This document shows positions 4,634-53,495 of a DNA stretch of 64,000 nucleotides, piece after piece. The notes below the pieces were generated by a model. The model had not been told where the DNA came from. It saw nothing but the letters and a program-made list of their open reading frames with translations, and made no database searches. The position numbers and the translations under genes were made by a program. Positions within the stretch are counted from its first letter, which is position 1. Every line of letters starts with the position of its first letter. Source of the stretch: an uncultured Planctomycetales bacterium (GTDB lineage: Bacteria > Omnitrophota > Gorgyraeia > Gygaellales > Profunditerraquicolaceae); contig CAZIUK010000003.1 of assembly GCA_964542785.1 (NCBI GenBank), positions 12,946-76,945 of the forward strand. Direction: 5' to 3'.

Positions 4634-4670
4634 AAAAATATTTTAAAAATTTTAATCAGATTATAAAAAT

Positions 4671-5981: not shown

Positions 5982-5982
5982 G

Positions 5983-31077: not shown

Positions 31078-32609
31078 GGATTTTATTTTATTTTTTCTTA
31101 TATTTATCTTTATTTTTATTTTATCCCGGGTTAATTTTATCAGGAGAGGAAGGTACGCAGGTAAGCGCAGTTAAGGAGGTTAAGTTAGACGGGGTAAATG
31201 ATGATAGTCAAGAGAGTATTGATAAGATTTCTTTGGATCTGAAAGGGGTTGATATCAATGAGCTTTTTAAGATAATTTCTGCAAAATCCGGAATCACCAT
31301 AGTTACCTCTCCTGAAGTAAGGGGCCGGGTTTCGGTTTTTATTGATAATTTAAGTTTTGATGATGCGTTAGACGTAATCGTGACCTTACAGGATCTTGCT
31401 TACGAGAAGAAGGGGAACGTAGTAAAGGTGATGACTATGGTAGAGTATGAGCGGGCCTATGGGAAAAAATTCGGGGAGAGGAAAGAGACCCGTACTATAC
31501 GGCTTACTTATGCTAAGCCTTCTAATGTCGTCAATGCAATTACCTCCTTAAAGTCTGACCTTGGCAAGATTATTGCCGATGAATCTACCGGGACTATTAT
31601 TATAACCGATACTCCGCAATCTTTAAGTGTCATTTTAGAAGCTATTAAAGAATTAGACCGTCCTTTAGAAACTTTAGTAATTGATATTAATTATGCGCGT
31701 TTTGGGGATATAAAAAATTACCTGAATGAATTAATTACCCCCGGGGTAGGGCAGATTATCTCTGATGATAGAAGCGGTAAAGTGGTGGTTTATGATTTTC
31801 CTCAAAGGTTGGCGCGCATTAAAAACCTTTTGCAGGAATTAGACGAACAGTCCCGTCAGGTGCTTATTACTGGAGAGATTATTGAAGTAGAGATAGGCGA
31901 TAAATTTCAAAGCGGTATTGAGTGGGAAAAAATATTTAAGTCTGTGCATATGGATAATTTGGATTTAGTAGCGAAATTTCCAGTTACCCCGGCTTTGGCT
32001 AATTACGGTAAAATTAGCATAGGAACCTTGACACAGGACCATTATAATATAATAATTAATATGATTAATGAATATGGAAAGACTAAGATACTTAACCGCC
32101 CTAGGATTGTGGCGGTTAATAAAGAAGAGGCTAGGATTCTTGTCGGGACTCGCGAGGCCTATGTTACCTCTAGCCAAAGCCAAAGCGAAACTTCTGTAGT
32201 TACCGCAGAGAACATCAACTTTGTAGATGTCGGGCTTAAGCTGGTGGTTATTCCTACTATTGGCTCTGACGGTTTTATTACTATGAAAATAAAGCCTGAA
32301 ATCAGCACAGTAAAGGAGTATTTAGATACTGAGGCAGGTGGCCGTGTGCCGATAGTTAAAACTGCTGAATCGGAGACTGTGGTTAAGGTAAAAGACGGAA
32401 ATATGTTAGTTATAGCAGGGTTGATGATAGATAGTGATTTAAAAGAGGCTAAGGGGCTGCCTGATTTGTCTAAGTTGCCTATTTTAGGCCATTTATTTTC
32501 TACGAAGACAAAGGAAAAGACAAAATCAGAAATAGTTATTTTTATAACGCCAACAATTATAAGCGGCACTAGTGATTTTGGGCGCGAGGAGAGAAATGCA
32601 ATCAGGTAA
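31074..32609 (+). CDS. Secretin (T2SS/T4P GspD/PilQ/MshL family)
   Basis: Signal peptide; N-terminal secretin-N domains; C-terminal secretin core ending LPILGHLFSTKTKEKTKSEIVIFITPTII. Confidence 0.85.
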   Translation: MRILFYFFLYLSLFLFYPGLILSGEEGTQVSAVKEVKLDGVNDDSQESIDKISLDLKGVDINELFKIISAKSGITIVTSPEVRGRVSVFIDNLSFDDALDVIVTLQDLAYEKKGNVVKVMTMVEYERAYGKKFGERKETRTIRLTYAKPSNVVNAITSLKSDLGKIIADESTGTIIITDTPQSLSVILEAIKELDRPLETLVIDINYARFGDIKNYLNELITPGVGQIISDDRSGKVVVYDFPQRLARIKNLLQELDEQSRQVLITGEIIEVEIGDKFQSGIEWEKIFKSVHMDNLDLVAKFPVTPALANYGKISIGTLTQDHYNIIINMINEYGKTKILNRPRIVAVNKEEARILVGTREAYVTSSQSQSETSVVTAENINFVDVGLKLVVIPTIGSDGFITMKIKPEISTVKEYLDTEAGGRVPIVKTAESETVVKVKDGNMLVIAGLMIDSDLKEAKGLPDLSKLPILGHLFSTKTKEKTKSEIVIFITPTIISGTSDFGREERNAIR

Positions 32610-32628
32610 TATTATAAATGGTATAAAA

Positions 32629-32666
32629 GGGGACAGCGACTTTTTTATCAAAAAGTCGCTGTCCCT
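32629..32666. repeat. REP-like palindromic element GGGGACAGCGAC-T6atcA5-GTCGCTGTCCCT
   Basis: Exact family members also at 36657, 36819-36872, 38526, 53391-53449, 55076, 55700 and 59281-59340. Confidence 0.85.
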
Positions 32667-32670
32667 ATTT

Positions 32671-34611
32671 ATGAAATGGGGTATCTGCCTATTTTTATTA
32701 TTTTTGCTGATAGCGCCTTTAGGGGCTTTTATTTTTGCGCAAGGCGATATTGATTATGATGAACAGATAGATAAGATTTCTTTAGATTTAAAGAATGTTG
32801 AAATTGTAGAGCTTCTGCGCATACTTTCTCTTAAGACAAAAAAGACAATTGTCCCCAGCAAAGATATCTCAGGGCGCGTTACTATTTACCTTAATAACGT
32901 CTCTTTTAATGACGTTTTAGATATAGTCCTTTTAACTCAAGGCCTGGCTTTAAACAAAAAAGATAATATTTATTATGTTATGAGCGAAGCTGAATTTAAA
33001 AAAATTTTCGGCCGGGATTACATTGACAATAGAAAGGTAGAGACGGTAAAGCTTGCTTATGCTAAGCCCTCGGTAGTTTTTAATGCCTTAGGCCAGTTAA
33101 AATCAGATCTGGGGAAATTAGTCGTAGATGAATCAAGCGGGACGGTTATTCTTATAGATATTCCCGAAAAACTTTCTCTGATGAAAAAGATGATAAATGA
33201 AATGGACCAGCCATTGACAACCAAGGTCTACAACCTTAACTACATTAAAGCTGCTGATGCTAAAACTCAAATAACTGCCGCTATTACGCAAGGCACAGGA
33301 GAGGTTATAGTAGATGAAAGAAGCAGTAAAGCTATTGTTTCAGATTTATCTAAGAAAATGGATAAGATAGGTATGCTTGTACGCGAGATAGACGAAGAAT
33401 CGCGCCAGGTTTATGTGGAGGCTGATATTGTAGAGCTTAGTTTAAGCGATAAGTTTGAGCGCGGCATAGATTGGGAGAAGGTTTATACCTCTGCGGCTAT
33501 GGATGGATTAACCTTTGCCGGTTATTTCCCTGCTACATTAGCGCAGTTTCAAAAAATATCCGTTGGCACTTTAGCCGTGGATCACTACAAGGCCATATTA
33601 AATTTTCTTAACACTTACGGCAAGACGAATATCATCTCTCAGCCTAGGATAGCAGTTGTTAATAATGAAGAGGCAAATATTATGATTGGCGTGCGTGAGG
33701 CTTATATAACACAGACGCAGAGTCAGGCTACTTCCACTACGGTTACTTCGGAAACGGTAGAGTTTATTGATGTTGGCGTTAAGCTTAAAATATCCCCAAG
33801 GATAGGCTCTGATGGTTTTATCACTATGAAACTTAAACCTGAGGTAAGCTCTGTAAAGGAGACAGTAGAGACTTCTTTAGGCAGCCGTATTCCGATAGTC
33901 CAGACTTCTGAGTCAGAGACGACGGTAAAGGTTAAGGATGGGACGATGATTATGATTGCCGGGATGACTAAGATTGAAAATGTAGATGCGATTAAGGGTT
34001 GGCCAGTGCTTTCTAAAATTCCCTTTCTTGATATATTCTTTGGCAATCGTACCAGCGAGAAAAAGAGAACAGAGGTTATAGTCTTTTTGACTCCGAGAAT
34101 AATGCGCAGTGATGAAGGCTTAAGAGGATTAGAGATTGCTAAGATTCTCCCTAAGGAATATCTGCCTGAGAAGCTGCAGGTTAAGATAGACAGGGACCAG
34201 AAGATAGATGACGCTTTGTTTGAGACTGAGGAGAATCCGCAGGAATTACTTACGGCGCGCGATTATTATTTTAAGGGGTTAGAGTCGCAGGCATCTTTGG
34301 ATAATAAAGAGGCCATACGTTATTTTAAGAAGGCTATAGAGTTAGATAGTAAATATGCCGCGGCTTATAACAATTTAGGAATTGCTTATGAGAAGGAGTT
34401 TATGCCGGAAAAAGCAGAAGAGGCGTATCTTCAGGTTATATCTATGGACCCTTCTTTTGTCTCTGCTTATTCTAATTTAGCCTTACTTAATGAAGACCGG
34501 CTTGATTATGCCCGGGCGCTTATTTATTGGAGAAAACGAGTCCTTTACGGAGACCCTAATGATGAGTGGACTAAACAGGCTGTTCAAAGGGTTAAGGAGC
34601 TTAGCCGTTAA
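32671..34611 (+). CDS. Second secretin paralog with a C-terminal TPR extension (secretin fused to a pilotin/MshN-like TPR domain)
   Basis: Likely start MKWGICLFLLF (signal peptide), just after the REP element. Secretin core IPFLDIFFGNRTSEKKRTEVIVFLTP. C-terminal TPR repeats (AIRYFKKAIELDSKYAAAYNNLGIAY...). Confidence 0.8.
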   Translation: MKWGICLFLLFLLIAPLGAFIFAQGDIDYDEQIDKISLDLKNVEIVELLRILSLKTKKTIVPSKDISGRVTIYLNNVSFNDVLDIVLLTQGLALNKKDNIYYVMSEAEFKKIFGRDYIDNRKVETVKLAYAKPSVVFNALGQLKSDLGKLVVDESSGTVILIDIPEKLSLMKKMINEMDQPLTTKVYNLNYIKAADAKTQITAAITQGTGEVIVDERSSKAIVSDLSKKMDKIGMLVREIDEESRQVYVEADIVELSLSDKFERGIDWEKVYTSAAMDGLTFAGYFPATLAQFQKISVGTLAVDHYKAILNFLNTYGKTNIISQPRIAVVNNEEANIMIGVREAYITQTQSQATSTTVTSETVEFIDVGVKLKISPRIGSDGFITMKLKPEVSSVKETVETSLGSRIPIVQTSESETTVKVKDGTMIMIAGMTKIENVDAIKGWPVLSKIPFLDIFFGNRTSEKKRTEVIVFLTPRIMRSDEGLRGLEIAKILPKEYLPEKLQVKIDRDQKIDDALFETEENPQELLTARDYYFKGLESQASLDNKEAIRYFKKAIELDSKYAAAYNNLGIAYEKEFMPEKAEEAYLQVISMDPSFVSAYSNLALLNEDRLDYARALIYWRKRVLYGDPNDEWTKQAVQRVKELSR

Positions 34612-36669: not shown

Positions 36670-36791
36670 TATTTATAAGAGTAATATTTATAATAAAATA
36701 GAGTAGTTTTACGATTGTTATTTTAGGATAAATATAATATACTTAAGGTACAGGTTAAAAATAAAAAATGGCAGGTATAATGAAAATAATA

Positions 36792-36815
36792 AACAATAAC
36801 AATAACAATAACAAC
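36792..36815. repeat. Hexanucleotide microsatellite (AACAAT)3 plus AACAAC
   Basis: Read directly; ~35 bp upstream of the probable start codon at 36849. Confidence 0.8.
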
Positions 36816-36818
36816 AAA

Positions 36819-36872
36819 GGGGACAGCGACTATTACTATTTTTGCGCTATGATAAAAAAAGTCGCTGTCCCC
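36819..36872. repeat. REP element GGGGACAGCGAC-30 nt-GTCGCTGTCCCC spanning the start codon of the downstream gene
   Basis: The right arm encodes residues 3-8 (KKVAVP) of the signal peptide. Confidence 0.85.
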
Positions 36873-39338
36873 ATTTTGGTTGCGTGTTTTTTTGTTGTCG
36901 CAGCGCAGGCAGAGGTCTTGGTAATTAAAGCTCCCTTAACTTGGGGGCTTGATAAATCCGCAGAATACCCTTTGCCAAAAGTATTAAACGGTATTTATAC
37001 AACTGACCAGTTTGTAGCTACTGAAGGACAAGTTAGCGCTATTACGATGAATTGGGAATCAAGGGGCGCTATATCAATGGAGGTAAGCGCTGATAATGGG
37101 CTGCATTATACTCCGGTAATAAATGGCGTTCCTTTAGAGAGCGGTTTTGTAAGTGGAGATAGGATTCGCTGGCGGGCACAAGCGCTAAATGAGGATGCGC
37201 AGTTAACAGCGGTGAATCTTTCTTATTCTGATACATCCGGAGTAATAGGGGATTTTGGCCAGCCACTTTTAAGCGGATTTATGTACCGTAAAGAATTTAT
37301 AGTGCGCAATGATTCTAGAGAAGATTTATACAATTATCAGATGAAGCTAAGAATAGGGGAAAGTGAATTAGCCAAGGATGCTGATATCTGCCTTTCTAAA
37401 AAAGCAAAAGAGGATTTTAGCGATATAAGAATTAGCGCATCTGATGGTAAGCGTATTTTATCCTATTATCTTGAAAGCATAGAAGGCGAGCTTCCAGGAA
37501 AGCGCAGTGCTGTAATTTGGGTTAATATTCCTCAACTGCCAAAAGAAAAAGATTTAAAGCTTTACCTATATTATGGGAATCCGCAGGCTTTAAGTTTATC
37601 AAGCGGCGAGCAGACGTTTGATTTTTTTGATGATTTTAAAGACCCTGCCAAGAGCAATGAGAAATGGATAACCTATACAGAAAAAAACGGTACCTTGCAA
37701 TTAAAAAATGGGGAAATTAAGCTTGATGCAGCCGAAGCCATTACAAAAGATTTTCTTTTTAAAGAAGGAATTGTTGAGTATCCCGTAGAGATTGAGAGCG
37801 GTTTTGAAAACAGTTTAAACTTGCGTGTCCAGAATGGTAACTCTTATGATATTCCGCTTTGGTCGGGTTATTCTTCTTTATACAAAGGTGCAGAGCATTG
37901 CATTGCTGTAGAGGGGACAGTAAGAAATAATGACACAACTGCTCTACCTTCTTTTGCCGGAAATAGGTATTACTACCGTTTTGAATATTTTAATGGTAAT
38001 ATAGTCTTTAGCCGTTTTGATGCTTTGACTAAAGAAAAGCAGGCAGAGGCAGTCTTTAAGTCTGATTCTTTGCAAAAAATAGGCTATCTGTCTTTGCGTT
38101 CCGGAGGTGACGGGAATGGCAAGAATGTTATTCGTTTTGGCGCTATACTTGTGCGTAAAGCTGCTTTAATCAAACCGTATTTTGTTTCAGCAGGAAAAGA
38201 AGAGCAACTCTCTTTGCCTATTTTTTCCGGTACAACTCTTTCTTCTTTTGGGAGCCTTACTTTGGCCAAAGGGGCAATGAGCGGGCATTATATTTCAAGT
38301 AATATCCGAAGCGAAGACCAGATAAGGATCATGATCCCTGACTGGGATATTGATTCTCTTGGAGGAGAGTTTATCTTACATCTTTCTGCTGATGCCGGCG
38401 GGTCATATAAGAAAGGCTGCGAAAAGGGGAAGTATTATTATGCTTCAAAAAAGGATTTTGTCCCCGGGAAAAACTTAAAGATACGCATTGACCTTTTAAA
38501 AGGGGCAGGCTCCGAAGTCGAAAAAGTCGCTGTCCCCTTTGTGAAGGTGGAGCATAGGGCAGGAAAGGTAAATATTATTTCACCTAATGGCAGAGAGGTC
38601 TGGGAGGTAGGAAGCAGTAAGAAGATTAGCTGGAGTGCCTTGGATTACGATGAAACTTATCTTTTTGATTTAGCTTACTCTGTCAATGGAGGAAAGGATT
38701 ATATTGAGATTATAGCCAATAAAGATAATGATGGAGTTTATACTTGGGTTGTCCCGGATAAAATTACTAAAATCGCAAAGATAAAGATATCTGATTCTTT
38801 GGATAAAGGTATTTATGATCTTTCCGATGCTTATTTTTCTATTGTAGCTAGAGAAGATTTAAGCATTCAGGAAGAGAAAAAAGAAGAAGCAGGGGTAGTA
38901 GTGCAGGCAGCGCTAAAAGATAAAGCCAGTAAAGAGAGCAAAGATAAGAAAGATAAAGTTACTAAAGAAAGCAAAAAGAAGAAAGATAAAGTTAGCAAAG
39001 AGAACAAAAAGTTGCCGGGGAAAAATCTTTATGATCTTTTAATTAAGATAGGCGATAGCAGGTCTTCCTACAGCGAGGGGGATATTGTTATCTTAAGGCC
39101 TTCAGGTTATATTTGGAGCGTTGAAGAGAGGGAGAAGTTTTTGATTGCGCAGGTATACCTAACTGAAAAGCAGGCTGAGGAATTAACCTCTCCTTTAAAA
39201 ACAAAGGATGGAGAGATATTAAGCCGCAGGAAATATAGGATTAACTTGCTTAAGCAGGGGCTTAAAGGTTTGACAGGGTCAATTAAAAGGCCAAAGGGCT
39301 CTTTTGAGGCAGGGGTTATTGAGGATAAGGCAAATTAG
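36849..39338 (+). CDS. Secreted DUF2341/LamG-like surface protein with a Lys-rich low-complexity tail
   Basis: Start MIKKVAVPILVACFFVVAAQA (signal peptide); the ORF-track start at 36768 adds an artefactual poly-Asn extension. IRISASDGKRILSYYLE...AVIWVNIPQL...LYLYYGNPQA resembles the DUF2341 signature. KDK/KESKKK repeats near the C-terminus. Confidence 0.55.
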   Translation: MIKKVAVPILVACFFVVAAQAEVLVIKAPLTWGLDKSAEYPLPKVLNGIYTTDQFVATEGQVSAITMNWESRGAISMEVSADNGLHYTPVINGVPLESGFVSGDRIRWRAQALNEDAQLTAVNLSYSDTSGVIGDFGQPLLSGFMYRKEFIVRNDSREDLYNYQMKLRIGESELAKDADICLSKKAKEDFSDIRISASDGKRILSYYLESIEGELPGKRSAVIWVNIPQLPKEKDLKLYLYYGNPQALSLSSGEQTFDFFDDFKDPAKSNEKWITYTEKNGTLQLKNGEIKLDAAEAITKDFLFKEGIVEYPVEIESGFENSLNLRVQNGNSYDIPLWSGYSSLYKGAEHCIAVEGTVRNNDTTALPSFAGNRYYYRFEYFNGNIVFSRFDALTKEKQAEAVFKSDSLQKIGYLSLRSGGDGNGKNVIRFGAILVRKAALIKPYFVSAGKEEQLSLPIFSGTTLSSFGSLTLAKGAMSGHYISSNIRSEDQIRIMIPDWDIDSLGGEFILHLSADAGGSYKKGCEKGKYYYASKKDFVPGKNLKIRIDLLKGAGSEVEKVAVPFVKVEHRAGKVNIISPNGREVWEVGSSKKISWSALDYDETYLFDLAYSVNGGKDYIEIIANKDNDGVYTWVVPDKITKIAKIKISDSLDKGIYDLSDAYFSIVAREDLSIQEEKKEEAGVVVQAALKDKASKESKDKKDKVTKESKKKKDKVSKENKKLPGKNLYDLLIKIGDSRSSYSEGDIVILRPSGYIWSVEEREKFLIAQVYLTEKQAEELTSPLKTKDGEILSRRKYRINLLKQGLKGLTGSIKRPKGSFEAGVIEDKAN
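38526..38537. repeat. Solo REP half-site GTCGCTGTCCCC inside the coding sequence
   Basis: Read in-frame as KVAVPF within the DUF2341-like protein. Confidence 0.7.
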
Positions 39339-39379: not shown

Positions 39380-40987
39380 ATGAGAAAGAAGTTATTAGTC
39401 TTCTGGGTTTTATTTTTTGCTTTAGTATTTTTAAAGAGTACCTTTGCCAATAATATAACTGTAAGCAACCTTTCGCTGGATAACCTGGATTCAGCTTCAG
39501 GCACAGTTGAGATAAAGTTTGATTTAGATTGGGAGAATAGTTTTTCCCCGGAACAAGACCCTGATGCTACAACATTTGACGCAGCGTGGGTATTTGTTAA
39601 GTTTTACAGCGGAGATCCTAAGAAGTGGCATCATGCGCGGCTAAGCGAAGGCGGGACCTTCCAGTTGTATAGCACGGAGACAAAATTAGGGATTACCGAG
39701 GATAGAGTAGGTGTTTTTTGCCGCCCGGGAAACAACCAAACCCTTATCTGGAACTATCGTGATGCAGGAGTCAGCTTGGAAGAGGAGGATATAAAGATTA
39801 AGGTCTTTGCCATTGAGATGGTATATATACCAGAGGGAGAGTTTTATATAGGTTCCGGTATGCTAGAAGCTTATTCGTTTTATGACGCCTCTGATCCTAC
39901 TCGGAGTCAGCCTATTAAAATTACTGCCTCTTCTCCCTGGCTCTCTGATAGGGCTAATGGCGCTGAAGGCACAGGAATACCAGGAGATATAGCGTTTAAT
40001 AAGACTACCAGTCCTGGCTATGGTAATCTGCCAGTAGTAAGAACCCAATTAAACCCTAACTATCCTACAGGATACAAGGGGTTTTATATCGCAAAGTATC
40101 CGATCTCTCAGGGTCAATACAGGGATTTTTTAAATACCCTGACTAGGGAAGAGCAGCATAGGCTGGTTGGGAAAACTATAAGTGACACTAACGCATCTTT
40201 CTCACTTCCTGACAATATCCCTCCAGGAACAACAGAGGTAACTAATGTATATGTAATGGAGAATTCTCCCGCCTTAACTAGGCGTGTTTCAATAAGATGC
40301 GATAGCCAGATAGATGCGTATGCTCCGGTAACTTTTTACTGCGACTTAAATGGAAACGGTATTCCTAATGAAGAAGATGATGGAGAGTGGCTCCCGATGA
40401 GTGACATCTGGTGGCACTTTAACGGAGCATTCTGTGATTGGGCAGGGTTGCGGCCTATAACTGAATTAGAATATGAAAAAGCCTGCCGCGGTCCAGTTTA
40501 TCCTGTCCCAGGGGAATTGGCTCATGGGCTTTCTAACGTTAATTATCTTTCGGTTTCCGCTGCCCAGGTAGGTAACCCCGGGCGAATTGATGAGTATGCA
40601 ACTAATAACGGGAACTTTCGTTGGATATATGGTACCTCGTGGATAATGCGGGTAGGTTTTGCCGCGACCCCTAATTCTACCAGGGAATCAGCAATTTCTT
40701 CTTATTATGGGGTAATGGATATGACATCCCAGGTTAGTACTCCTGTTGTAAGTGTAGTTGCTCTTACTTTTGACGGACAACATGGAGATGGAGAGTTAGA
40801 CGCGTCAGTAAACACAGTGCATAATGTGCCTAACTGGCCTACAGATCATGCAGGCTGGCGCTCCGGTGACAGGAATTATGTGAGTGCGGTTTCGTACCGT
40901 TATTCTGATAGCAATCTGGATCCTTTAGTATGGAAAAAGAATCGTACTGGAAATAGCAGTATACGTCCTTGCCGGACTGCTTATTAG
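39380..40987 (+). CDS. Secreted FGE-sulfatase (SUMF1/formylglycine-generating-enzyme) domain protein
   Basis: Signal peptide; GFYIAKYPISQGQYRDFLNTL and a C-terminal Trp/Gly-rich region typical of the FGE-sulfatase fold; 535 aa. Confidence 0.55.
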   Translation: MRKKLLVFWVLFFALVFLKSTFANNITVSNLSLDNLDSASGTVEIKFDLDWENSFSPEQDPDATTFDAAWVFVKFYSGDPKKWHHARLSEGGTFQLYSTETKLGITEDRVGVFCRPGNNQTLIWNYRDAGVSLEEEDIKIKVFAIEMVYIPEGEFYIGSGMLEAYSFYDASDPTRSQPIKITASSPWLSDRANGAEGTGIPGDIAFNKTTSPGYGNLPVVRTQLNPNYPTGYKGFYIAKYPISQGQYRDFLNTLTREEQHRLVGKTISDTNASFSLPDNIPPGTTEVTNVYVMENSPALTRRVSIRCDSQIDAYAPVTFYCDLNGNGIPNEEDDGEWLPMSDIWWHFNGAFCDWAGLRPITELEYEKACRGPVYPVPGELAHGLSNVNYLSVSAAQVGNPGRIDEYATNNGNFRWIYGTSWIMRVGFAATPNSTRESAISSYYGVMDMTSQVSTPVVSVVALTFDGQHGDGELDASVNTVHNVPNWPTDHAGWRSGDRNYVSAVSYRYSDSNLDPLVWKKNRTGNSSIRPCRTAY

Positions 40988-44022: not shown

Positions 44023-47000
44023 ATGAAGAAAATACTCAAGGTATTATTAATAGGCGGGTTAGCGCTCTGGGGTTATTTTGAATCCGCATCCTTGGCTTTA
44101 GGAGCTAATCTTTCTATCTCAAGCGCGTCTGATCAGACCTTTATCTCTGAGGAAGCGCCTAAGGATGCGCAGGCTATAACCATTACTGATGTATCTGGAT
44201 CCGGCATAATCGTTTCAAGCGGGTTGAGGATACTTATCCCGGATTCTTTCGGGATGCAGTGGCATGGGGCTATGCTTAGGGATGATAGCGTGACTGATAC
44301 CTCTAACGCTGATTTTAGTGTTATTGCCGCGCAGATAATCTCTGCCGGGGTAACCTTGGAAAGTTCAGATGCCGGAGCAACCGGGAGCGTGGAGGTTAAT
44401 TTTACCAGTATAAACTCTATACCTGCTGATGCAAAGATAGTGATTACATTCCCGGATAATTTTGTTTTTAATTCTAAAAGCCCAACTCTTGCTTCTTCTG
44501 CCACAATGAGCGGGGATTTTAGTGTTAGTATTACTGGGCAGGTTATAACAGTTACCCGCAACTCAACTTCGGCTTCTTCTGCTGGAAGCCACTTAATTAC
44601 CTTAACTAATATTAAGAATCCGATTAGGCCGGGAACAACTGGGGCATATTCATTGAAGATCCAGACTCTGGCGGGGTTTGATATTGATGTGAATAATGAT
44701 TTAGCCGCTTCCACGATTGTCCCTGCGGCAACTTCCCGTATAACTTTAAATTCTCCGGATGATATGACTGCAGGCGCAGCGCGCGCAGCCTACACCTTAA
44801 CCCGTTATGATGAGTACGGTAATTTAAGTACACAAGAGGAAGAAGTCTTTGACATTTCAACTACCTCTACCGGGGATAATGCTGTTTTCTACAATGATGC
44901 TACTGCAAGCGAAGCCGGGAATATCATTACCAGTATCACTATCCCCCAGGGTTCTTCTTCGGTTAACTTCTGGTATGACGATACCAAGATGGGGGCGTAT
45001 ACAATTGCGGCTATTAAATCAGATCAGCCTGAGATTACCGTTTCTGATGGTATAAATGTAAAGCATGCTGAACCGGATCATTTAAGGTTTGTTTCTGATA
45101 TACCTACTGCGGATGCCAAGCAGGTCTCTGTGCAGTTTAACCTGCCTCAGCTTGCTGCTGTTGACCGTTATGATAATATACTTACTAATGACTACGGAGC
45201 TGCTGCTTATTCCGGGAATAAGGCTATAACCTATTCCTTAAGCGGTCAAAGAGACGCTCCCGACGGAAATGGGACAGATCTTTTTTATTCCGACAATGTA
45301 GCTTCGGCGAAGGTAAATTTTACTAACGGCCTCTCAACAAATGCCCTTAGCGCTAAGTTATACCGGGCGCAGAATACGGTTATATCCCCGGCGGATAGTA
45401 ATCTTCCCAGCGAGAGTCTTCCTTCTAACGAGATTATTGTTAACCCGGCTACAGCGACAAAACTGGTCTTTAAACAGCAGCCTTCTGGCAGTGCGATAGT
45501 CAACTCTGCCTTTTTACAACAGCCGGTAGTAGCTATCCAGGATCATTACGGCAACCAGACTTTGGATATATTCCCGATAAAGCTCTATGATTCTATCCGT
45601 TCGGAATTTCCTTATGCCGATGCTCCTGGAATTTTAACTTCTGACCACGAGGATAATACATTAAATGCCGTTGCAGGCGAGGCGTCTTTTAGCGGGGTTG
45701 AATATAATGCCTCAGGTGTAATATACCTGTATGCCCAAGGATTAGGCGCAGGCAGCAATGTTAACCCTGTTTTTTCAAATGAGATAACCCTGGCTACTTC
45801 CGTCACAACCATGGTTAAGGCCGCGGATACTCCTGTAGCTGACTTTAACCTAACTCCTACCAACGATACATTGGAAAAGAAGTTTAAGGTTTTAAAGTTT
45901 AAGGTAACTGATGCCGGAGAAGATAAGACTCCTACATTGATCGATCAGATTAAAATAGCAGTATCCGGCACCGGGGGTCATGCTTCTACAGATATTGCCT
46001 GGGCAGGTTTATATGTAGGAGAAGAAAAGGTGGCGGATGCTGCTTCTATAACAGATGACTTTATTACTTTTGGGCAGGAGCCTAACAGCGATTCTACTGC
46101 AGGTATCTACAGCGTGCCTGATAGTAGCTCTGTTGAATTTACCGTGTATATCCATATGAAGCCGGATAAGTTATCCGCCCTTGACGGCCAGTCGTATATC
46201 TTTACTACTGATGAAGATAGGGTAGGGGTTGACAGAGGGGCTTCTTCGCAAATGACGGCAAGCTCAGGCAGTATAGCCGCTGTTACCGGAACTATTAAAG
46301 TTGATATGACGCATCTTGAGATTGTAACTGAAGAAGGAGCCTCAACATTAACTGTCTCTGCTGGGGTGCCGGTAGAGCTGTTGGTGCGCGCTACCGACGC
46401 TAATAAGAACATAGATAGCGATTATAATGGTAGCCATACCTTAGTCTTCTCAGGGTTAAATAGTGTTGGTACCCTTTACCCAAAGATAGAGAGTGTCCTT
46501 TTTGGCTATAATATAACTATTTCTTTTTCAGGAGGTATTTCTGCTTCTCAAGGAGTTACCCTTACTCCTTATAAGAGCGAGGAAGGTATAATCGTTGTCC
46601 AGGAATCAGGAAAGTCTTACAGTCAGCATGGATTAACTGCCACGATTGTCCCTGCGGCGACTTCCCGTATAACTTTAAATTCTCCGGATGATATGACTGC
46701 AGGCGCAGCGCGCGCAGCCTACACCTTAACCCGTTATGATGAGTACGGTAATTTAAGTACACAAGAGGAAGAAGTCTTTGACATTTCAACTACCTCTACC
46801 GGGGATAATGCTGTTTTCTACAATGATGCTACTGCAAGCGAAGCCGGGAATATCATTACCAGTATCACTATCCCCCAGGGTTCTTCTTCGGTTAACTTCT
46901 GGTATGACGATACCAAGATGGGGGCGTATACAATTGCGGCTATTAAATCAGATCAGCCTGAGATTACCGTTTCTGATGGTATAAATGTAAAGCATGCTGA

Positions 47001-50000
47001 ACCGGATCATTTAAGGTTTGTTTCTGATATACCTACTGCGGATGCCAAGCAGGTCTCTGTGCAGTTTAACCTGCCTCAGCTTGCTGCTGTTGACCGTTAT
47101 GATAATATACTTACTAATGACTACGGAGCTGCTGCTTATTCCGGGAATAAGGCTATAACCTATTCCTTAAGCGGTCAAAGAGACGCTCCCGACGGAAATG
47201 GGACAGATCTTTTTTATTCCGACAATGTAGCTTCGGCGAAGGTAAATTTTACTAACGGCCTCTCAACAAATGCCCTTAGCGCTAAGTTATACCGGGCGCA
47301 GAATACGGTTATATCCCCGGCGGATAGTAATCTTCCCAGCGAGAGTCTTCCTTCTAACGAGATTATTGTTAACCCGGCTACAGCGACAAAACTGGTCTTT
47401 AAACAGCAGCCTTCTGGCAGTGCGATAGTCAACTCTGCCTTTTTACAACAGCCGGTAGTAGCTATCCAGGATCATTACGGCAACCAGACTTTGGATATAT
47501 TCCCGATAAAGCTCTATGATTCTATCCGTTCGGAATTTCCTTATGCCGATGCTCCTGGAATTTTAACTTCTGACCACGAGGATAATACATTAAATGCCGT
47601 TGCAGGCGAGGCGTCTTTTAGCGGGGTTGAATATAATGCCTCAGGTGTAATATACCTGTATGCCCAAGGATTAGGCGCAGGCAGCAATGTTAACCCTGTT
47701 TTTTCAAATGAGATAACCCTGGCTACTTCCGTCACAACCATGGTTAAGGCCGCGGATACTCCTGTAGCTGACTTTAACCTAACTCCTACCAACGATACAT
47801 TGGAAAAGAAGTTTAAGGTTTTAAAGTTTAAGGTAACTGATGCCGGAGAAGATAAGACTCCTACATTGATCGATCAGATTAAAATAGCAGTATCCGGCAC
47901 CGGGGGTCATGCTTCTACAGATATTGCCTGGGCAGGTTTATATGTAGGAGAAGAAAAGGTGGCGGATGCTGCTTCTATAACAGATGACTTTATTACTTTT
48001 GGGCAGGAGCCTAACAGCGATTCTACTGCAGGTATCTACAGCGTGCCTGATAGTAGCTCTGTTGAATTTACCGTGTATATCCATATGAAGCCGGATAAGT
48101 TATCCGCCCTTGACGGCCAGTCGTATATCTTTACTACTGATGAAGATAGGGTAGGGGTTGACAGAGGGGCTTCTTCGCAAATGACGGCAAGCTCAGGCAG
48201 TATAGCCGCTGTTACCGGAACTATTAAAGTTGATATGACGCATCTTGAGATTGTAACTGAAGAAGGAGCCTCAACATTAACTGTCTCTGCTGGGGTGCCG
48301 GTAGAGCTGTTGGTGCGCGCTACCGACGCTAATAAGAACATAGATAGCGATTATAATGGTAGCCATACCTTAGTCTTCTCAGGGTTAAATAGTGTTGGTA
48401 CCCTTTACCCAAAGATAGAGAGTGTCCTTTTTGGCTATAATATAACTATTTCTTTTTCAGGAGGTATTTCTGCTTCTCAAGGAGTTACCCTTACTCCTTA
48501 TAAGAGCGAGGAAGGTATAATCGTTGTCCAGGAATCAGGAAAGTCTTACAGTCAGCATGGATTAACTGCCACGATTAATGCGGGTGCTGCCAGTAATATT
48601 GCCCTATTAAGCGGCAATAACCAATCTGGAAAGATAGCCGCGCCTCTACTCCAGGCTTTTGTGGTGGCAGTTACCGATGTTTATGGTAATGGTATTGGAT
48701 CTGGGACCGGGGTTGATTTTGCTATTCTTAGCCAGCCTGAAGGTGCAACAGGAGCTTTATTAAGCACTATTTCTGGTGTAACTGATGCTAATGGCCATGC
48801 CTTTACAACCCTGACTGTAGGTAGCCTTGCTGGTGATTATCAGGTGACTGCTTCTTCAGCGGGGTTATCTGGTTCACCGGTAACTTTTATCGCTACGGGT
48901 TTACTCCCTAGTGCAATTCAGCTTTTAAGCGGAGATAACCAGTCTAAACAGGTAGTTTCTGCATTAGATGACCCTCTGGTAGTTAAAATAGTTGATTCAA
49001 CAGGTATTCCTATTCCTCGTGAGAAAGTGGATTTTACTATATCTTCTTATCCTGAAGGCGCGGTTGGGCAAGCGCTCTTGTCAGGCTCAGTGGTAACTGA
49101 TGATAACGGCCAGGCACAGACCAGCTTTACTTTAGGAGATAAGGCAGGGGTTTACAAGGTAACTGTTAATTGCGGTTCGCTTACTGCGGTTGATTTTAAT
49201 TTTAATGCTACTGCCAGGGCTCCTTATCAGGTAGCCTTAAGAGGTCCGGTTTCAGTCAAGGCAGGGGAGGTCTCTACCAAATTTACCGTCTCCATAGAGG
49301 ATGAATACAATAATCCTTCTAATTTATCCCAGGCAACTGTATTTTCATTAACCAATAATCCTTCTCGGCCAAGCGGAATATTTTATTCAAATAGCGACGG
49401 GACGTTAGCAATTAATTCTCTGACTGTAGCTAAGGGTACGAATAGCGCCAGTTTTTACTATAAGGATACAATAACTGGCATGGCGAATATTACGGCAACC
49501 CGTACTAGCGGGCAGTCTTTAATCCAGGGAATATCAAGCCAGGAAGTTACGGTTATCCCTTCGGATGCCTATCGTTTTACTATTGTTGGCAATACTGATA
49601 CTATAGAGACAGGGGAAAGTAAAGTATTGACCATAACCGCTTATGATAATTTAGGCAATGTAAAGAGCGATTATACCGGGAATGTTAATGTTCTCTTCTC
49701 TGGGGCTAGTGCTTCCCCAGCTCCTTCATCAAAGAAAGCCACAGCTTCTAACCATCTAAGTCAGGATATTGAATTTGGAAAGACTACCAGCCTAAACTTT
49801 ATTAATGGTGTAGCTGTTTCAACCTTGAAGTTTTATAAAGTAGAGGATGTGAATATAAAGATAACCAGCGGTTCAATAGTTACTGCTGAAGAGGATAGTC
49901 TAAGCTTTACCGTCAGGCATGGTCAGGCAGATCACTTGAAATTCGGCGGGAATCTTCCTGCTTTGCAGGAGGCGGGGGTAGAGTTTGATTTTGAAACTAC

Positions 50001-53000
50001 GCTGCAAGCGGTTGACCTTTATGATAATATCTGCAACGGCCTTAATGGTTCTTCCGGATTCTCTGGTTCAAAGAAGGTTACCTGGAGTTTAAGCGGAGCT
50101 TCTGATGGACCTGAGGGGAATGTTATTGATGAGTTTGTCAGTCCTGTAGAGTTTAGCTTAGGGGTATCCACTACTACTTTAAGCGCAAAGCTCTACCGTG
50201 CACAGGATACCACCATTACCGCTGCTATTTCTGCTTTAATAGGGGTAAATGTTGCTTCGAATACAATTACAGTTGAGCCTGGGGCAGTAGCAAAGCTAAG
50301 GTTCTCTCAGGAGCCTGCGGCTTCTTCCATTACCAGTCAGGCTTTAGAGGTACAGCCTAAGGTTGCGGTAAGTGATCAGTATGGTAACCCTGTTTCTACT
50401 ACCTCGGCTAACGTAAGCATTGCTGCTTCAACTAGCAATGATTCATTTGTACCTGTGGTTAATGGAGTATTAAGCGCTATTGGAGGACTTACAGCATCTA
50501 CAGTTAACGGAGTAGCTTCTTTTAGCGGAGTAACCTATAATTATCCTGAGACTATTTACCTTCGCGCCACAGTCGCAGGGGTAAGCCTGGTGCCGGTATT
50601 CTCTTCAGGTATAACATTTAGTACCGCTCAGGAAACAGCTCTCTCTGTTACTACACCAGGGCCTACTGCTATTTCTTCTCTTGCCTATACTACTGCAGAC
50701 AGAGTTGGGGTGCTTAATTTTAGGGTTGTTGATGGGGGGACTGATGGTTTCTCCAGTAAGATACGCCAGGTGATTGTAAAGCGCAACACCTCTGATACTA
50801 CCGGCGGGTGGACAAATTACCTGCAGGGAGTCTATATTACCGATGGAGCAACGCAGGTGGTTGGGAGGATAGAGGATGATCAGATTATTTTTGGCTTGGG
50901 GGGAAATGATATTTATGATGTTACTAACGGCACGACTAAGAATTTTACTGTGAGCGTATTTTTGAAGAATCCGCTCCCCTTAGATTCAGATAATAAGGTT
51001 TTGGGTTTCAAGCTTGATCCGGCTACAGATATAGTATTTGGTTCACCTAGCTCTAGGCTTGTCTCTTCTTCTGTGATGAGTTCAACTCCAAAGATCTCGG
51101 TTGTGGCTACTGATTTTGCTATTTTTGGCTCTCCTACCATGAATGCCGGAGATACCCAGCCGATTACGCTTAAGGCCGTAGATATACTGGGCAATATTGA
51201 TAAGGATTATGTTGGAGAAAAAACTTTAGTTTTTAGCGGACCAAGTATAACGAGTAAAGGAAATGAGCCCATCGAGACGACCTCAAATATTCCTTTTGGT
51301 ACGGATACCCCGGTTTCTTTTACCAACGGCCAGAGCTCATCTACCGTCGGGATTAAACTCTTTAAAGCCGAAACTGCTTATGTTAAGGCAGCCGATATTT
51401 CTGCGGGGATAACTACTCCTAATCAGAAAGCCTTGATTGTTACGGTTTACGGCGGAGCTGCCACGGGTTTAAGTTGGCTTACCCAGCCGGTGGGCGTAGT
51501 TGTCGAAAATGCCCCGTGGAAAGAGTTTAGTATTTCAGTTACCGATGCTTATGGCAATACCTCATCCAGCAGTACTGAGGTAACCGTAGCTCCTTCTAAC
51601 GGCAGTATCTCTACAGGTTCGCAGGCAACAGTTACCGCTCAATCGGGAATAGCCACATTCTATAATTTTGCGGTAAATGGTCTTAATGATGAAGAGAAGA
51701 TCACTTTAAGCGCATCAGCAAGCGGGGTAGCCGGTACCGGTCCTTCCAATGAAGTGCAGGTATTTAAGGTTTATAAGGTAACGGTCTTTGTAAAAGATTA
51801 TACTAGCGCTAGTAATCTTACTGAATGCGCTTTGGATGCCACATCTAACGGAGTAGTCGTAGATGGTTTTCCAAAGACAGGCAACAGCCCGTTTACTTTT
51901 AACTTGCCCTACGGGACGTATACCTTCCGGGTCTCTAAGGAAAAATATGTTGATGAAAACACCGAAAAGACAGCTGGTGTTGCCGCGGATTACCTGGACG
52001 GAGTATATGATGCAAAGATTACCTGGTCTTTGACTGCTACAAGTTTAGTTGAGGCTACTGCTGATTATAAAGCACAGAGCGCTTTTGTTTATGATGAAAG
52101 TACTGACAAGCTTTCTATCCGCGTCTGGCTGGAGAAGCGCGGGAAGATGGTAGTTAATGATGATGTTAATATTTTAGGTAATGCGGTTGTAGATATCTAT
52201 AATGATTCTACCGGGGGATGGCTTAAGTCAATTACCTTAGAGCCTCCTGCTGCGTCTAATACTGTAAATGGAGTTTATTTTAAGGAGATACCTAATGTAG
52301 TTTCTGTTGACGATGATTTTAACCTTGTTGCAGGCAAGACCTATTTTGCCCGTGTTGTCATTAATTATGGTGGGCTTACTGGTACAGGCAGAAGTTATGA
52401 AGGAGGAGCGACCTTTAGTGTTACTATAAACGAGAATCTGCGCGCAGTTACTAATTCTATTCAGACGGTTGCTACTAATATCGCCGGGCAGACTGCGGCA
52501 ATTCAAAAGACGATAAAGGATGAGATAGAAGGCCAGATTACTAGTGTTGTTGTGCCTAAGATTACTGATGTAAAGACTGAGACATCTAAGATTCTTTCTG
52601 CCACAGGCACAGAGTCTTTGCAGGATAAGATTGCCGAGGTAAAAACACAGGTAGTCCAGGAGGTTCAGCCGCATATTAAATCCGGTATATTAAATGGAGA
52701 GACTGCGGTAAGAACTGGCTCTAAACTAGCTGTTCGTTATCGAACTGATTCTGGACTTTCTCCAACGATATCCGTATATAGCCCCAAGAACAATCTTCTT
52801 ATCTCCGACAGGGCTATGGCAGAGATAGGGATAACGGGAATCTATGAGTATAATGTAACATTTTTACCGGCTTGGGGGAGGGGATCCTTTACTATTGTTT
52901 GTTCAGAGCCGGTAAAAGGAACAGCTGATGCCTTTGTGCTTAAGGTAAGTGATTCGGATATAGAGGATATATCAAGTAGTGTCTCTGCTGTTTTAGGTAG

Positions 53001-53370
53001 CACCTCTGGCATTACCAACCTTAAGAAAGTAACCGAAACCTTAAACGCGCAGTTTAGTGATATGGATAAGGCTATTGCCCAAATCAGCAAGAATATTACT
53101 GGAAAGGTTGAAGAGGTAAAAGGGGCTGCCGTTGAACTTGCCGGCGTATTTAAGCAGCTTGAGGATATGAGTAATACCATTAAGAGCTTAGGAGGGACAG
53201 CCGGTATAAATATTGATAAGATTTACGAGGTATCTAAAGATAAGCAGGAGGATATTAGTTATATTAAGAATAAGAGCGAAGAGCTTAAGGCGGCGATGGA
53301 GCTTAACCAAAAGATGATAGAGAATGTTGCTAAGAAGCCAGTAGTTCAAACCTGGTTTGAATTCAAGTAA
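44023..53370 (+). CDS. Giant (3115 aa) cell-surface protein with repeated Ig-like/beta-sandwich modules and a C-terminal coiled-coil-like region
   Basis: Signal peptide; long Thr/Ser/Val/Gly-rich modules. Residues ~230-872 are repeated almost identically at ~873-1515. Followed by a REP hairpin. Confidence 0.7.
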   Translation: MKKILKVLLIGGLALWGYFESASLALGANLSISSASDQTFISEEAPKDAQAITITDVSGSGIIVSSGLRILIPDSFGMQWHGAMLRDDSVTDTSNADFSVIAAQIISAGVTLESSDAGATGSVEVNFTSINSIPADAKIVITFPDNFVFNSKSPTLASSATMSGDFSVSITGQVITVTRNSTSASSAGSHLITLTNIKNPIRPGTTGAYSLKIQTLAGFDIDVNNDLAASTIVPAATSRITLNSPDDMTAGAARAAYTLTRYDEYGNLSTQEEEVFDISTTSTGDNAVFYNDATASEAGNIITSITIPQGSSSVNFWYDDTKMGAYTIAAIKSDQPEITVSDGINVKHAEPDHLRFVSDIPTADAKQVSVQFNLPQLAAVDRYDNILTNDYGAAAYSGNKAITYSLSGQRDAPDGNGTDLFYSDNVASAKVNFTNGLSTNALSAKLYRAQNTVISPADSNLPSESLPSNEIIVNPATATKLVFKQQPSGSAIVNSAFLQQPVVAIQDHYGNQTLDIFPIKLYDSIRSEFPYADAPGILTSDHEDNTLNAVAGEASFSGVEYNASGVIYLYAQGLGAGSNVNPVFSNEITLATSVTTMVKAADTPVADFNLTPTNDTLEKKFKVLKFKVTDAGEDKTPTLIDQIKIAVSGTGGHASTDIAWAGLYVGEEKVADAASITDDFITFGQEPNSDSTAGIYSVPDSSSVEFTVYIHMKPDKLSALDGQSYIFTTDEDRVGVDRGASSQMTASSGSIAAVTGTIKVDMTHLEIVTEEGASTLTVSAGVPVELLVRATDANKNIDSDYNGSHTLVFSGLNSVGTLYPKIESVLFGYNITISFSGGISASQGVTLTPYKSEEGIIVVQESGKSYSQHGLTATIVPAATSRITLNSPDDMTAGAARAAYTLTRYDEYGNLSTQEEEVFDISTTSTGDNAVFYNDATASEAGNIITSITIPQGSSSVNFWYDDTKMGAYTIAAIKSDQPEITVSDGINVKHAEPDHLRFVSDIPTADAKQVSVQFNLPQLAAVDRYDNILTNDYGAAAYSGNKAITYSLSGQRDAPDGNGTDLFYSDNVASAKVNFTNGLSTNALSAKLYRAQNTVISPADSNLPSESLPSNEIIVNPATATKLVFKQQPSGSAIVNSAFLQQPVVAIQDHYGNQTLDIFPIKLYDSIRSEFPYADAPGILTSDHEDNTLNAVAGEASFSGVEYNASGVIYLYAQGLGAGSNVNPVFSNEITLATSVTTMVKAADTPVADFNLTPTNDTLEKKFKVLKFKVTDAGEDKTPTLIDQIKIAVSGTGGHASTDIAWAGLYVGEEKVADAASITDDFITFGQEPNSDSTAGIYSVPDSSSVEFTVYIHMKPDKLSALDGQSYIFTTDEDRVGVDRGASSQMTASSGSIAAVTGTIKVDMTHLEIVTEEGASTLTVSAGVPVELLVRATDANKNIDSDYNGSHTLVFSGLNSVGTLYPKIESVLFGYNITISFSGGISASQGVTLTPYKSEEGIIVVQESGKSYSQHGLTATINAGAASNIALLSGNNQSGKIAAPLLQAFVVAVTDVYGNGIGSGTGVDFAILSQPEGATGALLSTISGVTDANGHAFTTLTVGSLAGDYQVTASSAGLSGSPVTFIATGLLPSAIQLLSGDNQSKQVVSALDDPLVVKIVDSTGIPIPREKVDFTISSYPEGAVGQALLSGSVVTDDNGQAQTSFTLGDKAGVYKVTVNCGSLTAVDFNFNATARAPYQVALRGPVSVKAGEVSTKFTVSIEDEYNNPSNLSQATVFSLTNNPSRPSGIFYSNSDGTLAINSLTVAKGTNSASFYYKDTITGMANITATRTSGQSLIQGISSQEVTVIPSDAYRFTIVGNTDTIETGESKVLTITAYDNLGNVKSDYTGNVNVLFSGASASPAPSSKKATASNHLSQDIEFGKTTSLNFINGVAVSTLKFYKVEDVNIKITSGSIVTAEEDSLSFTVRHGQADHLKFGGNLPALQEAGVEFDFETTLQAVDLYDNICNGLNGSSGFSGSKKVTWSLSGASDGPEGNVIDEFVSPVEFSLGVSTTTLSAKLYRAQDTTITAAISALIGVNVASNTITVEPGAVAKLRFSQEPAASSITSQALEVQPKVAVSDQYGNPVSTTSANVSIAASTSNDSFVPVVNGVLSAIGGLTASTVNGVASFSGVTYNYPETIYLRATVAGVSLVPVFSSGITFSTAQETALSVTTPGPTAISSLAYTTADRVGVLNFRVVDGGTDGFSSKIRQVIVKRNTSDTTGGWTNYLQGVYITDGATQVVGRIEDDQIIFGLGGNDIYDVTNGTTKNFTVSVFLKNPLPLDSDNKVLGFKLDPATDIVFGSPSSRLVSSSVMSSTPKISVVATDFAIFGSPTMNAGDTQPITLKAVDILGNIDKDYVGEKTLVFSGPSITSKGNEPIETTSNIPFGTDTPVSFTNGQSSSTVGIKLFKAETAYVKAADISAGITTPNQKALIVTVYGGAATGLSWLTQPVGVVVENAPWKEFSISVTDAYGNTSSSSTEVTVAPSNGSISTGSQATVTAQSGIATFYNFAVNGLNDEEKITLSASASGVAGTGPSNEVQVFKVYKVTVFVKDYTSASNLTECALDATSNGVVVDGFPKTGNSPFTFNLPYGTYTFRVSKEKYVDENTEKTAGVAADYLDGVYDAKITWSLTATSLVEATADYKAQSAFVYDESTDKLSIRVWLEKRGKMVVNDDVNILGNAVVDIYNDSTGGWLKSITLEPPAASNTVNGVYFKEIPNVVSVDDDFNLVAGKTYFARVVINYGGLTGTGRSYEGGATFSVTINENLRAVTNSIQTVATNIAGQTAAIQKTIKDEIEGQITSVVVPKITDVKTETSKILSATGTESLQDKIAEVKTQVVQEVQPHIKSGILNGETAVRTGSKLAVRYRTDSGLSPTISVYSPKNNLLISDRAMAEIGITGIYEYNVTFLPAWGRGSFTIVCSEPVKGTADAFVLKVSDSDIEDISSSVSAVLGSTSGITNLKKVTETLNAQFSDMDKAIAQISKNITGKVEEVKGAAVELAGVFKQLEDMSNTIKSLGGTAGINIDKIYEVSKDKQEDISYIKNKSEELKAAMELNQKMIENVAKKPVVQTWFEFK
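44712..48569 (+). repeat. Near-perfect tandem duplication of a 1929-bp (643-codon) unit inside the giant gene
   Basis: Copy 1 ~44712-46640, copy 2 ~46641-48569. I see only one difference (GCA/GCG, synonymous). The antisense ORFs 44849/46778, 45285/47214, 45612/47541 and 46107/48036 are exact duplicates offset by 1929. Confidence 0.9.
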
Positions 53371-53390: not shown

Positions 53391-53449
53391 GGGGACAGCG
53401 ACTTTTTTGATAAAAAGTCGCTGTCCCCCTAGAAAAAGTCGCTGTCCCC
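53391..53449. repeat. REP element GGGGACAGCGAC-T6gatA5-GTCGCTGTCCCC-ctagaaaaa-GTCGCTGTCCCC; probable terminator of the giant gene
   Basis: One left arm and two right arms; stable hairpin 20 nt after the stop codon. Confidence 0.85.
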
Positions 53450-53495
53450 TTTAAAAGGGTGACATATTTGAAAAATATGGTAAAATAAAATCAAG

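Follow-up and report, generated by a model that had tools for sequence, protein, structure and literature searches.

Does the near-identical pair of segments within one very long gene of an uncultured, probably Omnitrophota, bacterium reflect a genuine and recent in-frame duplication, or is it an effect of the assembly? The gene, which encodes a protein of 3,115 amino acids (aa), lies in contig CAZIUK010000003.1 (assembly GCA_964542785.1), of which we analyzed a stretch of 64,000 nucleotides (nt), hereafter the 64-kb window; all coordinates refer to it. A preliminary description had proposed a near-perfect 1929-bp tandem duplication in this gene and offered both explanations. We compared the DNA with itself base by base at an offset of 1929 nt, and 1,936 of 1,937 positions matched (44711-46647 vs 46640-48576). 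Everywhere outside 44711-46647 in the 42-50 kb region, identity at this offset was ~25%, which is the random level. A chance origin of the identity between the two copies is excluded. The evidence set out below points to a duplication that is probably real, very young, and specific to this lineage.

The features of the repeat are as follows.
44023-53370, plus strand: gene for a predicted secreted, all-beta, fibre-like protein of 3,115 aa (open reading frame (ORF) list and translation)
44711-46639, plus strand: copy 1 (unit A), 1,929 nt, 643 codons, aa 230-872 (offset comparison)
46640-48568, plus strand: copy 2 (unit A'), 1,929 nt, aa 873-1515, with one base different from copy 1
48569-48576, plus strand: partial third copy of 8 nt, CCACGATT (offset comparison)
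44730 (A) vs 46659 (G), plus strand: sole mismatch between the copies, GCA/GCG, both encoding Ala, 19 nt inside the unit start
44711-44718, plus strand: microhomology CCACGATT, left parental breakpoint, at the start of copy 1
46640-46647, plus strand: novel junction of copy 1 and copy 2, reading GGATTAACTG / CCACGATT / GTCCCTGCGGCG (read from the sequence)
48569-48576, plus strand: microhomology CCACGATT, right parental breakpoint, the first 8 nt past copy 2

The central claim of the preliminary description was thus borne out: the copies are identical at 1,928/1,929 positions within the ORF 44023-53370, they form two 643-codon units that keep the frame, and their one difference is synonymous. 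Its size and structure for the duplication also held, and only the coordinates needed correction, the true extent being 44711-48568 instead of 44712-48569, a shift of one base. At the protein level, residues 231-875 equal residues 874-1518 exactly; the boundary codon, S230 vs A873, is the only residue difference and falls outside the repeat proper. A repeat search recovered the 1,929-nt period and found no other long direct or inverted repeat in the window. Tandem Repeats Finder (TRF) was run with a maximum period of 500, so this period was beyond its reach. Two antisense ORFs, 46107-46412 and 48036-48341, are each other's duplicated image and were not counted as genes.

The unit boundaries are marked by a single octamer. 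CCACGATT occurs three times in the 64 kb, at 44711, 46640, and 48569, each time at a unit boundary; in the single-copy ancestor there were therefore two occurrences only, separated by 1,929 nt and sharing a codon phase. The passage from left flank to unit reads GCCGCTT/CCACGATT/GTCCCTGCGGCA, that from unit to unit TTAACTG/CCACGATT/GTCCCTGCGGCG, and that from unit to right flank TTAACTG/CCACGATT/AATGCGGGTGCT. The sequence spanning the copy 1/copy 2 junction is GGATTAACTGCCACGATTGTCCCTGCGGCG, and the left flank adjoining the copy-1 variant A (44730) is GCCGCTTCCACGATT. The parental sites overlap by 8 bp (10/11) and are otherwise unrelated, with 43 of 120 positions identical, the eight microhomology positions included. 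The probability of an 8-nt extension by chance is ~1.5e-5.

Both breakpoints fall between predicted domains. We modelled aa 215-900 with AlphaFold2 from an alignment of ten unit sequences, and the resulting model of unit A was all-beta, with about five beta-sandwich domains (mean predicted local distance difference test score (pLDDT) 73). The approximate limits of these domains, all encoded on the plus strand, were as follows.
D1: aa 232-350
D2: aa 351-464
D3: aa 465-582
D4: aa 583-745
D5: aa 746-872
Translated, the octamer gives (S/A)-T-I, residues that close one beta-sandwich domain immediately ahead of the following one. The breakpoint contexts are DLAAS/TIVPAATSRITL (LAAS/TIVPAATS) and HGLTA/TINAGAASNIAL (GLTA/TINAGAAS), and in the model (strand 657-662) both are at equivalent inter-domain linkers, where one sandwich ends and the next starts. 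Whole domains were thus gained, and no hybrid domain arose. Removal of 46640-48568 in silico left an uninterrupted ORF of 2,472 aa, a length that resembles those of the homologues P0003, P0004, and P0006 (2,514-2,529 aa).

A direct repeat, one novel junction, and short identity at both parental breakpoints are the marks of a template-switch or microhomology-mediated duplication, and all three were found here. In Escherichia coli, template-switch tandem duplications show a single novel junction, 4-15-bp microhomology, and direct orientation, and fresh junctions occasionally carry small changes such as a 3-bp deletion or a 1-bp insertion (Slack et al. 2006, PMC1428787). The present repeat resembles the lac amplification junctions of that study in its direct tandem orientation, its single new joint, and the short identity (8 bp, as against 4-15 bp in that work) that the two parental sites share; its unit of a few kb is also in the range attributed there to switching within one replication fork. 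Unlike them, it is intragenic, in frame, and placed between homologous linker positions; its outcome is a longer protein rather than extra gene dosage, and its mechanism is reconstructed from the scar.

The following course of events would account for these observations. In an ancestor with the octamer at two in-frame sites 1,929 nt apart, the two microhomologies would have recombined unequally, or served as the points of a template switch during replication, and a second copy, exact and in frame, would have arisen together with one new junction. At the sequence level, the protein grew from 2,472 to 3,115 aa through the gain of five complete beta-sandwich domains; it would now carry three copies of the conserved D4 domain where there had been two before. 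At ~4 nm per immunoglobulin-like (Ig-like) domain, the fibre would have become ~20 nm longer. The 1.9-kb perfect direct repeat would in turn be a substrate for homologous unequal recombination, and copies could be gained or lost in future in a RecA-dependent manner.

The remainder of the protein gives this event its context. Its architecture is signal peptide and N-terminal domain (1-229) / A / A' / middle (1516-1842) / B / C-terminal (2451-3115). The segments outside the duplication are as follows.
44107-44709, plus strand: N-terminal domain region (aa 29-229), which precedes the duplication and is the end that varies within the family
48568-49548, plus strand: middle region, aa 1516-1842, about three Ig-like domains, 36-56% identity to P0002-P0009
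49549-51372, plus strand: unit B, aa 1843-2450, an ancient paralogue of the ~620-aa module (blastp)
51373-53367, plus strand: C-terminal region, aa 2451-3115, 70% identity to P0002 vs 56-59% for the other segments
A blastp search of the whole protein against itself gave the trivial match only, and the protein was therefore compared in segments. Unit B matched unit A with 31.5% identity over 653 columns (E = 1.5e-53); units A and B are the products of one earlier, ancient duplication of the same module. The five domains of unit A have no significant sequence similarity to one another, except for a weak match between D2 and D3 (z = 4). The unit is thus a heterogeneous five-domain supermodule, and identical domains stand five apart rather than adjacent. 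The invariant columns cluster in D4, the strongly conserved domain.

In a search of 5.8 billion clustered proteins, the identical protein was found once, in a cluster of one. The homologues recovered were P0002 at 61% identity and P0003-P0009 at 40-46%; the 90% cluster of P0002 also contains P0026 and the full-length, 4,240-aa P0027. The nearest sequenced relatives are distant, at 56-61% amino-acid identity, and the names of the homologues point to Candidatus Omnitrophota / Velamenicoccus. In NCBI, P0002 is labelled Candidatus Paceibacterota and P0026, from the same cluster, Candidatus Omnitrophota, a conflict that points to faulty binning or taxonomy in one metagenome-assembled genome. By segment-wise blastp, P0002-P0009, P0026, and P0027 all share the order variable N-terminus, A (once), middle, B, and C-terminus, and the middle region is kept between units A and B in all homologues.

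We then counted modules. A profile of unit A gave 6,776 matches among 1.84 billion representative proteins, mostly to single Ig-like domains. When 174 proteins were re-scored with this profile and near-full-length modules were counted, at least one module was present in 39 of the 174, and three modules were present in the window protein only. The other 38 carriers had one or two copies, separated by ~330 residues when there were two, and none of these 38 had a tandem A-A' pair at any divergence. Because the other carriers have at most two, separated, modules, the tandem pair is derived and specific to this lineage. Repeats of other kinds were seen in several relatives: P0008 carries a near-identical 130-aa segment twice, 933 residues apart, and P0011 a 118-aa tandem repeat of about four copies, both outside the A/B modules, and P0017 and P0024 have near-identical tandems of roughly 100 aa. 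These internal repeats indicate that recent internal duplication recurs in the family.

As for the age of the event, the divergence between the copies is 1/1,929, or 5e-4 per site. Through the neighbouring proteins we found seven independent contigs of the same population (L003-L009, from five JGI metagenomes and one SRA run), which differed from the window by 5 single-nucleotide polymorphisms (SNPs) in ~20 kb, with 99.7-100% nucleotide identity. The population is thus present in at least six public metagenome assemblies (JGI 3300076258, 3300076261, 3300076594, 3300076298, and 3300076265; Logan SRR12447105), where its contigs are highly fragmented (1-5 kb), L007 having a 10-N scaffold gap inside the DUF2341 gene. 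As the divergence of the copies is of the same order as these within-population differences, the duplication does not predate ordinary variation within the population, provided that differences are not being erased by gene conversion.

That proviso leads to an alternative in which an old duplication has been kept near-identical by gene conversion (concerted evolution). The relatives are distant enough, at 56-61% amino-acid identity, for the duplication to date from anywhere since that deep split, and the sole difference lies 19 nt from the outer repeat edge, where conversion tracts that need homology on both sides least reach; a random site would be within 20 nt of either end ~2% of the time. 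Either an edge effect of conversion or a mutation during the duplication could explain this position, and junction-proximal point changes are also seen in fresh microhomology-mediated rearrangements (PMC1428787). An old tandem pair is further opposed by its absence, at any divergence, from the 38 other module carriers, and by microhomology boundaries that are still perfectly sharp. We consider concerted evolution very unlikely and prefer a recent event.

Regarding the assembly, the copy 1/copy 2 junction very probably exists in the organism. Assemblers work with k-mers and overlaps far longer than the 8 bp shared by the parental sites, so a repeat-driven mis-join is not a possible source of the junction, whose k-mers must have been in the reads. 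Because the SNP lies so close to the unit start, single reads can link it to each flank. A pure assembly or library artefact, with one true copy and a junction created by chimeric reads or a mis-join, would suit a metagenome-assembled contig whose exact protein is found in one record only. However, the 8-bp (10/11) overlap cannot yield the junction by a repeat-induced mis-join; of random chimeras, a third would keep the frame and few would fall at domain boundaries, whereas the present joint keeps the exact frame and links equivalent linkers; and the SNP tells the two unit starts apart, which simple doubling of the same reads would not do. No other repeat or anomaly and no composition change were seen in the 64-kb window, which also counts against an artefact, and we judge this explanation very unlikely. 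That most cells carry exactly two copies seems probable as well, with distinctly less assurance. The junction could be real and the copy number wrong (three or more), or the population could be a mixture of one-copy and multi-copy alleles, with the two-copy contig as the minimal path through a collapsed repeat loop. The 1.9-kb near-perfect repeat is longer than short reads and inserts, and a de Bruijn loop is typically traversed once, which gives two copies whatever the true number. The same-population assemblies, in 1-5 kb contigs with one scaffold gap, indicate short-read data, and recombination would be expected to make a perfect repeat of 1.9 kb unstable. On the other side, the SNP is phased, with A beside the left flank and G beside the unit end, which fits an ordered structure, and the source contig, at 101 kb, is far more contiguous than the JGI assemblies and may derive from deeper or long-read data. 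A miscounted or mixed array is in our view possible but unlikely.

Several points weigh against a young, genuine duplication in a surface fibre. The same-population contigs end at 41129 or start at 51755, and none reaches the 44.5-48.8 kb region; one SNP cannot date the event if gene conversion acts; confidence in the AlphaFold2 models is moderate (pLDDT 73 and 69), and their Foldseek matches are generic; no known adhesive or anchor domain was found in Pfam and NCBIfam searches; and the surface location, fibre shape, and adhesive role are predictions from the models. Further searches for the locus also returned nothing: neither the giant protein nor the 961-aa protein encoded upstream of it had an exact match in the contig index, an exact 28-nt unit-start pattern had zero matches in metagenome contigs, and among unit-A relatives in GTDB species genomes and JGI metagenome contigs no locus was confirmed. 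Taking these points together with the evidence above, we put at roughly 60% the probability that this is a genuine, very young, lineage-specific tandem duplication of a 643-codon segment, in a gene of this uncultured, probably Omnitrophota, bacterium whose product is fibre-like, exported by Sec, and either surface-bound or extracellular. The first alternative of the preliminary description, a recent in-frame duplication that lengthens the protein and provides a recombination substrate, accordingly gains support from the 8-bp microhomology, the linker breakpoints, the single copy in relatives, the signal peptide, and the Ig-like strings; its terms adhesin-like and stalk are predictions, as no adhesive or anchor domain was identified.

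The predicted export and shape rest on the following observations. The protein begins with a Sec-type signal peptide, MKKILKVLLIGGLALWGYFESASLALGA, and typical Sec signal peptides were also present in the homologues whose N-termini were inspected (P0003 and P0005-P0007). No second hydrophobic or transmembrane segment was found in the whole 3,115-aa protein, where the hydropathy maximum outside the signal peptide was 1.44. An NCBIfam search gave no match, and a PDB sequence search gave no family assignment. Foldseek comparison of the unit A model with the PDB returned Ig-like domain strings only (hydin-type, complement MG, cadherins, SbsB, SbsC, FdeC, and the filamin rod). Both models matched generic Ig-like strings only, with template modelling scores (TM-scores) of 0.1-0.27, and the predicted TM-scores (pTM) of 0.41-0.49 make the inter-domain geometry unreliable. 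A Foldseek match to the Aureispira grappling-hook protein GhpA was of the same generic Ig-like kind and was not taken as evidence of homology.

The two ends of the protein behave differently within the family. The N-terminal region is 41% identical to the N-termini of P0003 and P0004, and P0002, P0005-P0009, and P0027 have other, longer N-terminal regions instead. The C-terminal 665 residues, by contrast with the variable N-terminus, are the best-conserved segment relative to the closest homologue, P0002, and were modelled as three beta-sandwiches (one weakly PEGA-like), long helices, another beta-sandwich, and further long helices. Sequence matches of the C-terminus to UspA1 and apolipoprotein were dismissed as coiled-coil noise. 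The extreme C-terminus, KKPVVQTWFEFK (aa 3100-3115; 53320-53367), is conserved across the family and ends in the motif K-P-V-V-Q-T-W-F-E-F, of which P-x-x-x-x-W-x-E is invariant. No sorting-signal match to this motif was found in Pfam or NCBIfam, and it may be an attachment or assembly motif. The analogy of fibrillar surface proteins would place the attached or assembly end at the conserved C-terminus and the distal end at the variable N-terminus.

The surroundings of the gene are consistent with secretion. The first part of the window's gene order comprises an AAA_22 ATPase, two secretins, a histidine kinase with a LuxR-type regulator, a DUF2341 protein, an FGE-sulfatase-domain protein, and a 961-aa Ig-like protein; the giant gene is followed by a 234-aa unknown, Peptidase_MA_2, a response-regulator diguanylate cyclase, ATP synthase genes, and an MshE-type ATPase. 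The same gene order surrounds the homologue P0006, and the giant gene lies in a conserved secretin / type II-IV secretion locus, resembling a type II secretion system (T2SS). The relevant neighbours are as follows.
29591-30415: ExeA-like AAA_22 ATPase, which precedes the secretins along with an unannotated 219-aa ORF
31074-32609 and 32572-34611: secretin genes, consecutive and slightly overlapping, the second with C-terminal TPR repeats
36768-39338: DUF2341-domain gene
39380-40987: FGE-sulfatase-domain gene, the one such gene in the window
53391-53429, no strand assigned: 17-bp perfect inverted repeat, GGGGACAGCGACTTTTT / AAAAAGTCGCTGTCCCC, directly past the stop codon of the giant gene (read from the sequence)
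Within the DUF2341-domain gene, a lysine-rich tandem repeat (33 nt × 2.9, 84% matches) occupies 38916-39011. The right arm of the inverted repeat recurs once at 53433-53449, which explains a 21-nt × 2.3 repeat reported by TRF (53391-53449). The hairpin at 53391-53429 is probably a terminator, although a consensus terminator scan did not flag it, and a promoter-like site follows it at 53459-53486.

Some further observations concern the wider locus. At the syntenic locus of P0006, immediately upstream of the homologue of the giant gene, two FGE-sulfatase-domain genes flank bAvd and an RVT_1 reverse transcriptase (a diversity-generating retroelement). A role for such a retroelement in the duplication was considered and dropped, as no reverse transcriptase is among the annotated ORFs of the window. 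The ribonucleotide reductase large-subunit gene (19404-23003) contains an intein with a LAGLIDADG homing endonuclease (Intein_splicing and LAGLIDADG_3, ~aa 149-544 of 1,199). The window starts with an ORF of 1,138 aa (7-3423) that has Peptidase_M54 near its N-terminus, after which come a PilZ gene and a sugar importer of the binding-protein-dependent type (3947-7712). In Omnitrophota, large secreted proteins have been described near T2SS-like loci, PilZ, and sugar-import genes, and the same PilZ/sugar-importer arrangement occurs downstream of their giant genes (West-Roberts et al. 2023, bioRxiv 10.1101/2023.11.21.568195).

Among known systems, the closest parallel is with periscope proteins (SasG, Rib, Sgo_0707, and CdrA), in which high-identity tandem domain repeats let the length of a surface protein vary (Whelan et al. 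2021, PMC8201768). As in those proteins, tandem repeats of very high DNA identity encode folded beta-domains in an elongated secreted or surface protein, and protein length can change by intragenic recombination between the identical DNA segments; the array here, 1,928/1,929 identical and made of beta-sandwich domains, is the minimal one of two copies. Unlike in periscope proteins, there are only these two copies, the unit is a 643-aa supermodule of five sequence-unrelated domains, and Pfam and NCBIfam identify neither an anchor nor a distal ligand-binding domain. Periscope proteins are known from host-associated pathogens, whereas this is an uncultured environmental bacterium. Variation in copy number between strains was not observed: the collections searched yielded no conspecific sequence across the region, and an additional tandem copy was seen in none of the 38 more distant family members. 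The gene may work like a periscope protein; we do not class it as one, because the current annotation includes neither the anchor nor the ligand domain.

Other long Ig-like proteins offer partial parallels. With fibrillar adhesins the window protein shares a stalk of Ig-like beta domains (all-beta models and Foldseek Ig-like strings), and it differs from them in that Pfam, NCBIfam, and hydropathy gave no recognizable adhesive domain or envelope anchor. The long strings of Ig-like beta-sandwiches recall invasin/intimin Big_1 arrays, FdeC, SbsB, and SbsC; unlike invasin/intimin and S-layer proteins, the protein has no outer-membrane beta-barrel, LPXTG, SLH, or other recognized anchor. In Pfam (hmmscan), it had no match above threshold and none to Big_1 (PF02369), sub-threshold PEGA being the only match listed. 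Several homologues have precomputed PF02369 matches, and a relationship of the window protein to Big_1 is likely.

The probable phylum, the secretin/T2SS-like neighbours, the PilZ and sugar-import genes in the window, and secretion by signal peptide only are shared with the giant proteins of Omnitrophota (bioRxiv 10.1101/2023.11.21.568195; 10.64898/2026.06.07.730766). The protein is unlike those of the Archaeovorin/dockerin type in its length, 3,115 aa vs thresholds of 10-30 kaa (thousand amino acids), and in having no HEAT, dockerin, or TSP3. Among long Omnitrophota genes, none had at least 10% of its coding sequence in strict identical tandems, so that recent tandem expansion is not the rule (Nielsen & Lui 2026, bioRxiv 10.64898/2026.06.07.730766). 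The strict tandem makes up 41% of the coding sequence here, and the gene is thus unusual for the phylum, although not a new kind of thing.

The duplication amounts to one recent mutation of a familiar and well-understood sort, seen here at an unusually early and clean stage. An adaptive, a neutral, and a transient duplication are all possible, and nothing points to an adaptive one. For annotation, it serves as a warning that the length of the gene at 44023-53370 is assembly-dependent. A bolder idea is that the number of copies in the population is still changing (1, 2, 3 or more) and that the two-copy gene shows one moment in the variation of a five-domain super-repeat in the prey- or host-contacting fibre of an ultra-small Omnitrophota cell, a periscope-type length switch with selection on fibre reach or D4 number. 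We regard this as speculative and rather improbable; if it were true, multi-domain supermodules would avoid placing identical domains side by side. The locus nonetheless offers a natural example of how long multidomain surface proteins may grow, with a five-domain block copied in one step at linker-level microhomology, and the A-A' event repeats the ancient duplication that gave rise to units A and B in the same family. If the copy number does vary in the population, the range of periscope-type length variation would come to include uncultured Omnitrophota and repeat units made of several domains.

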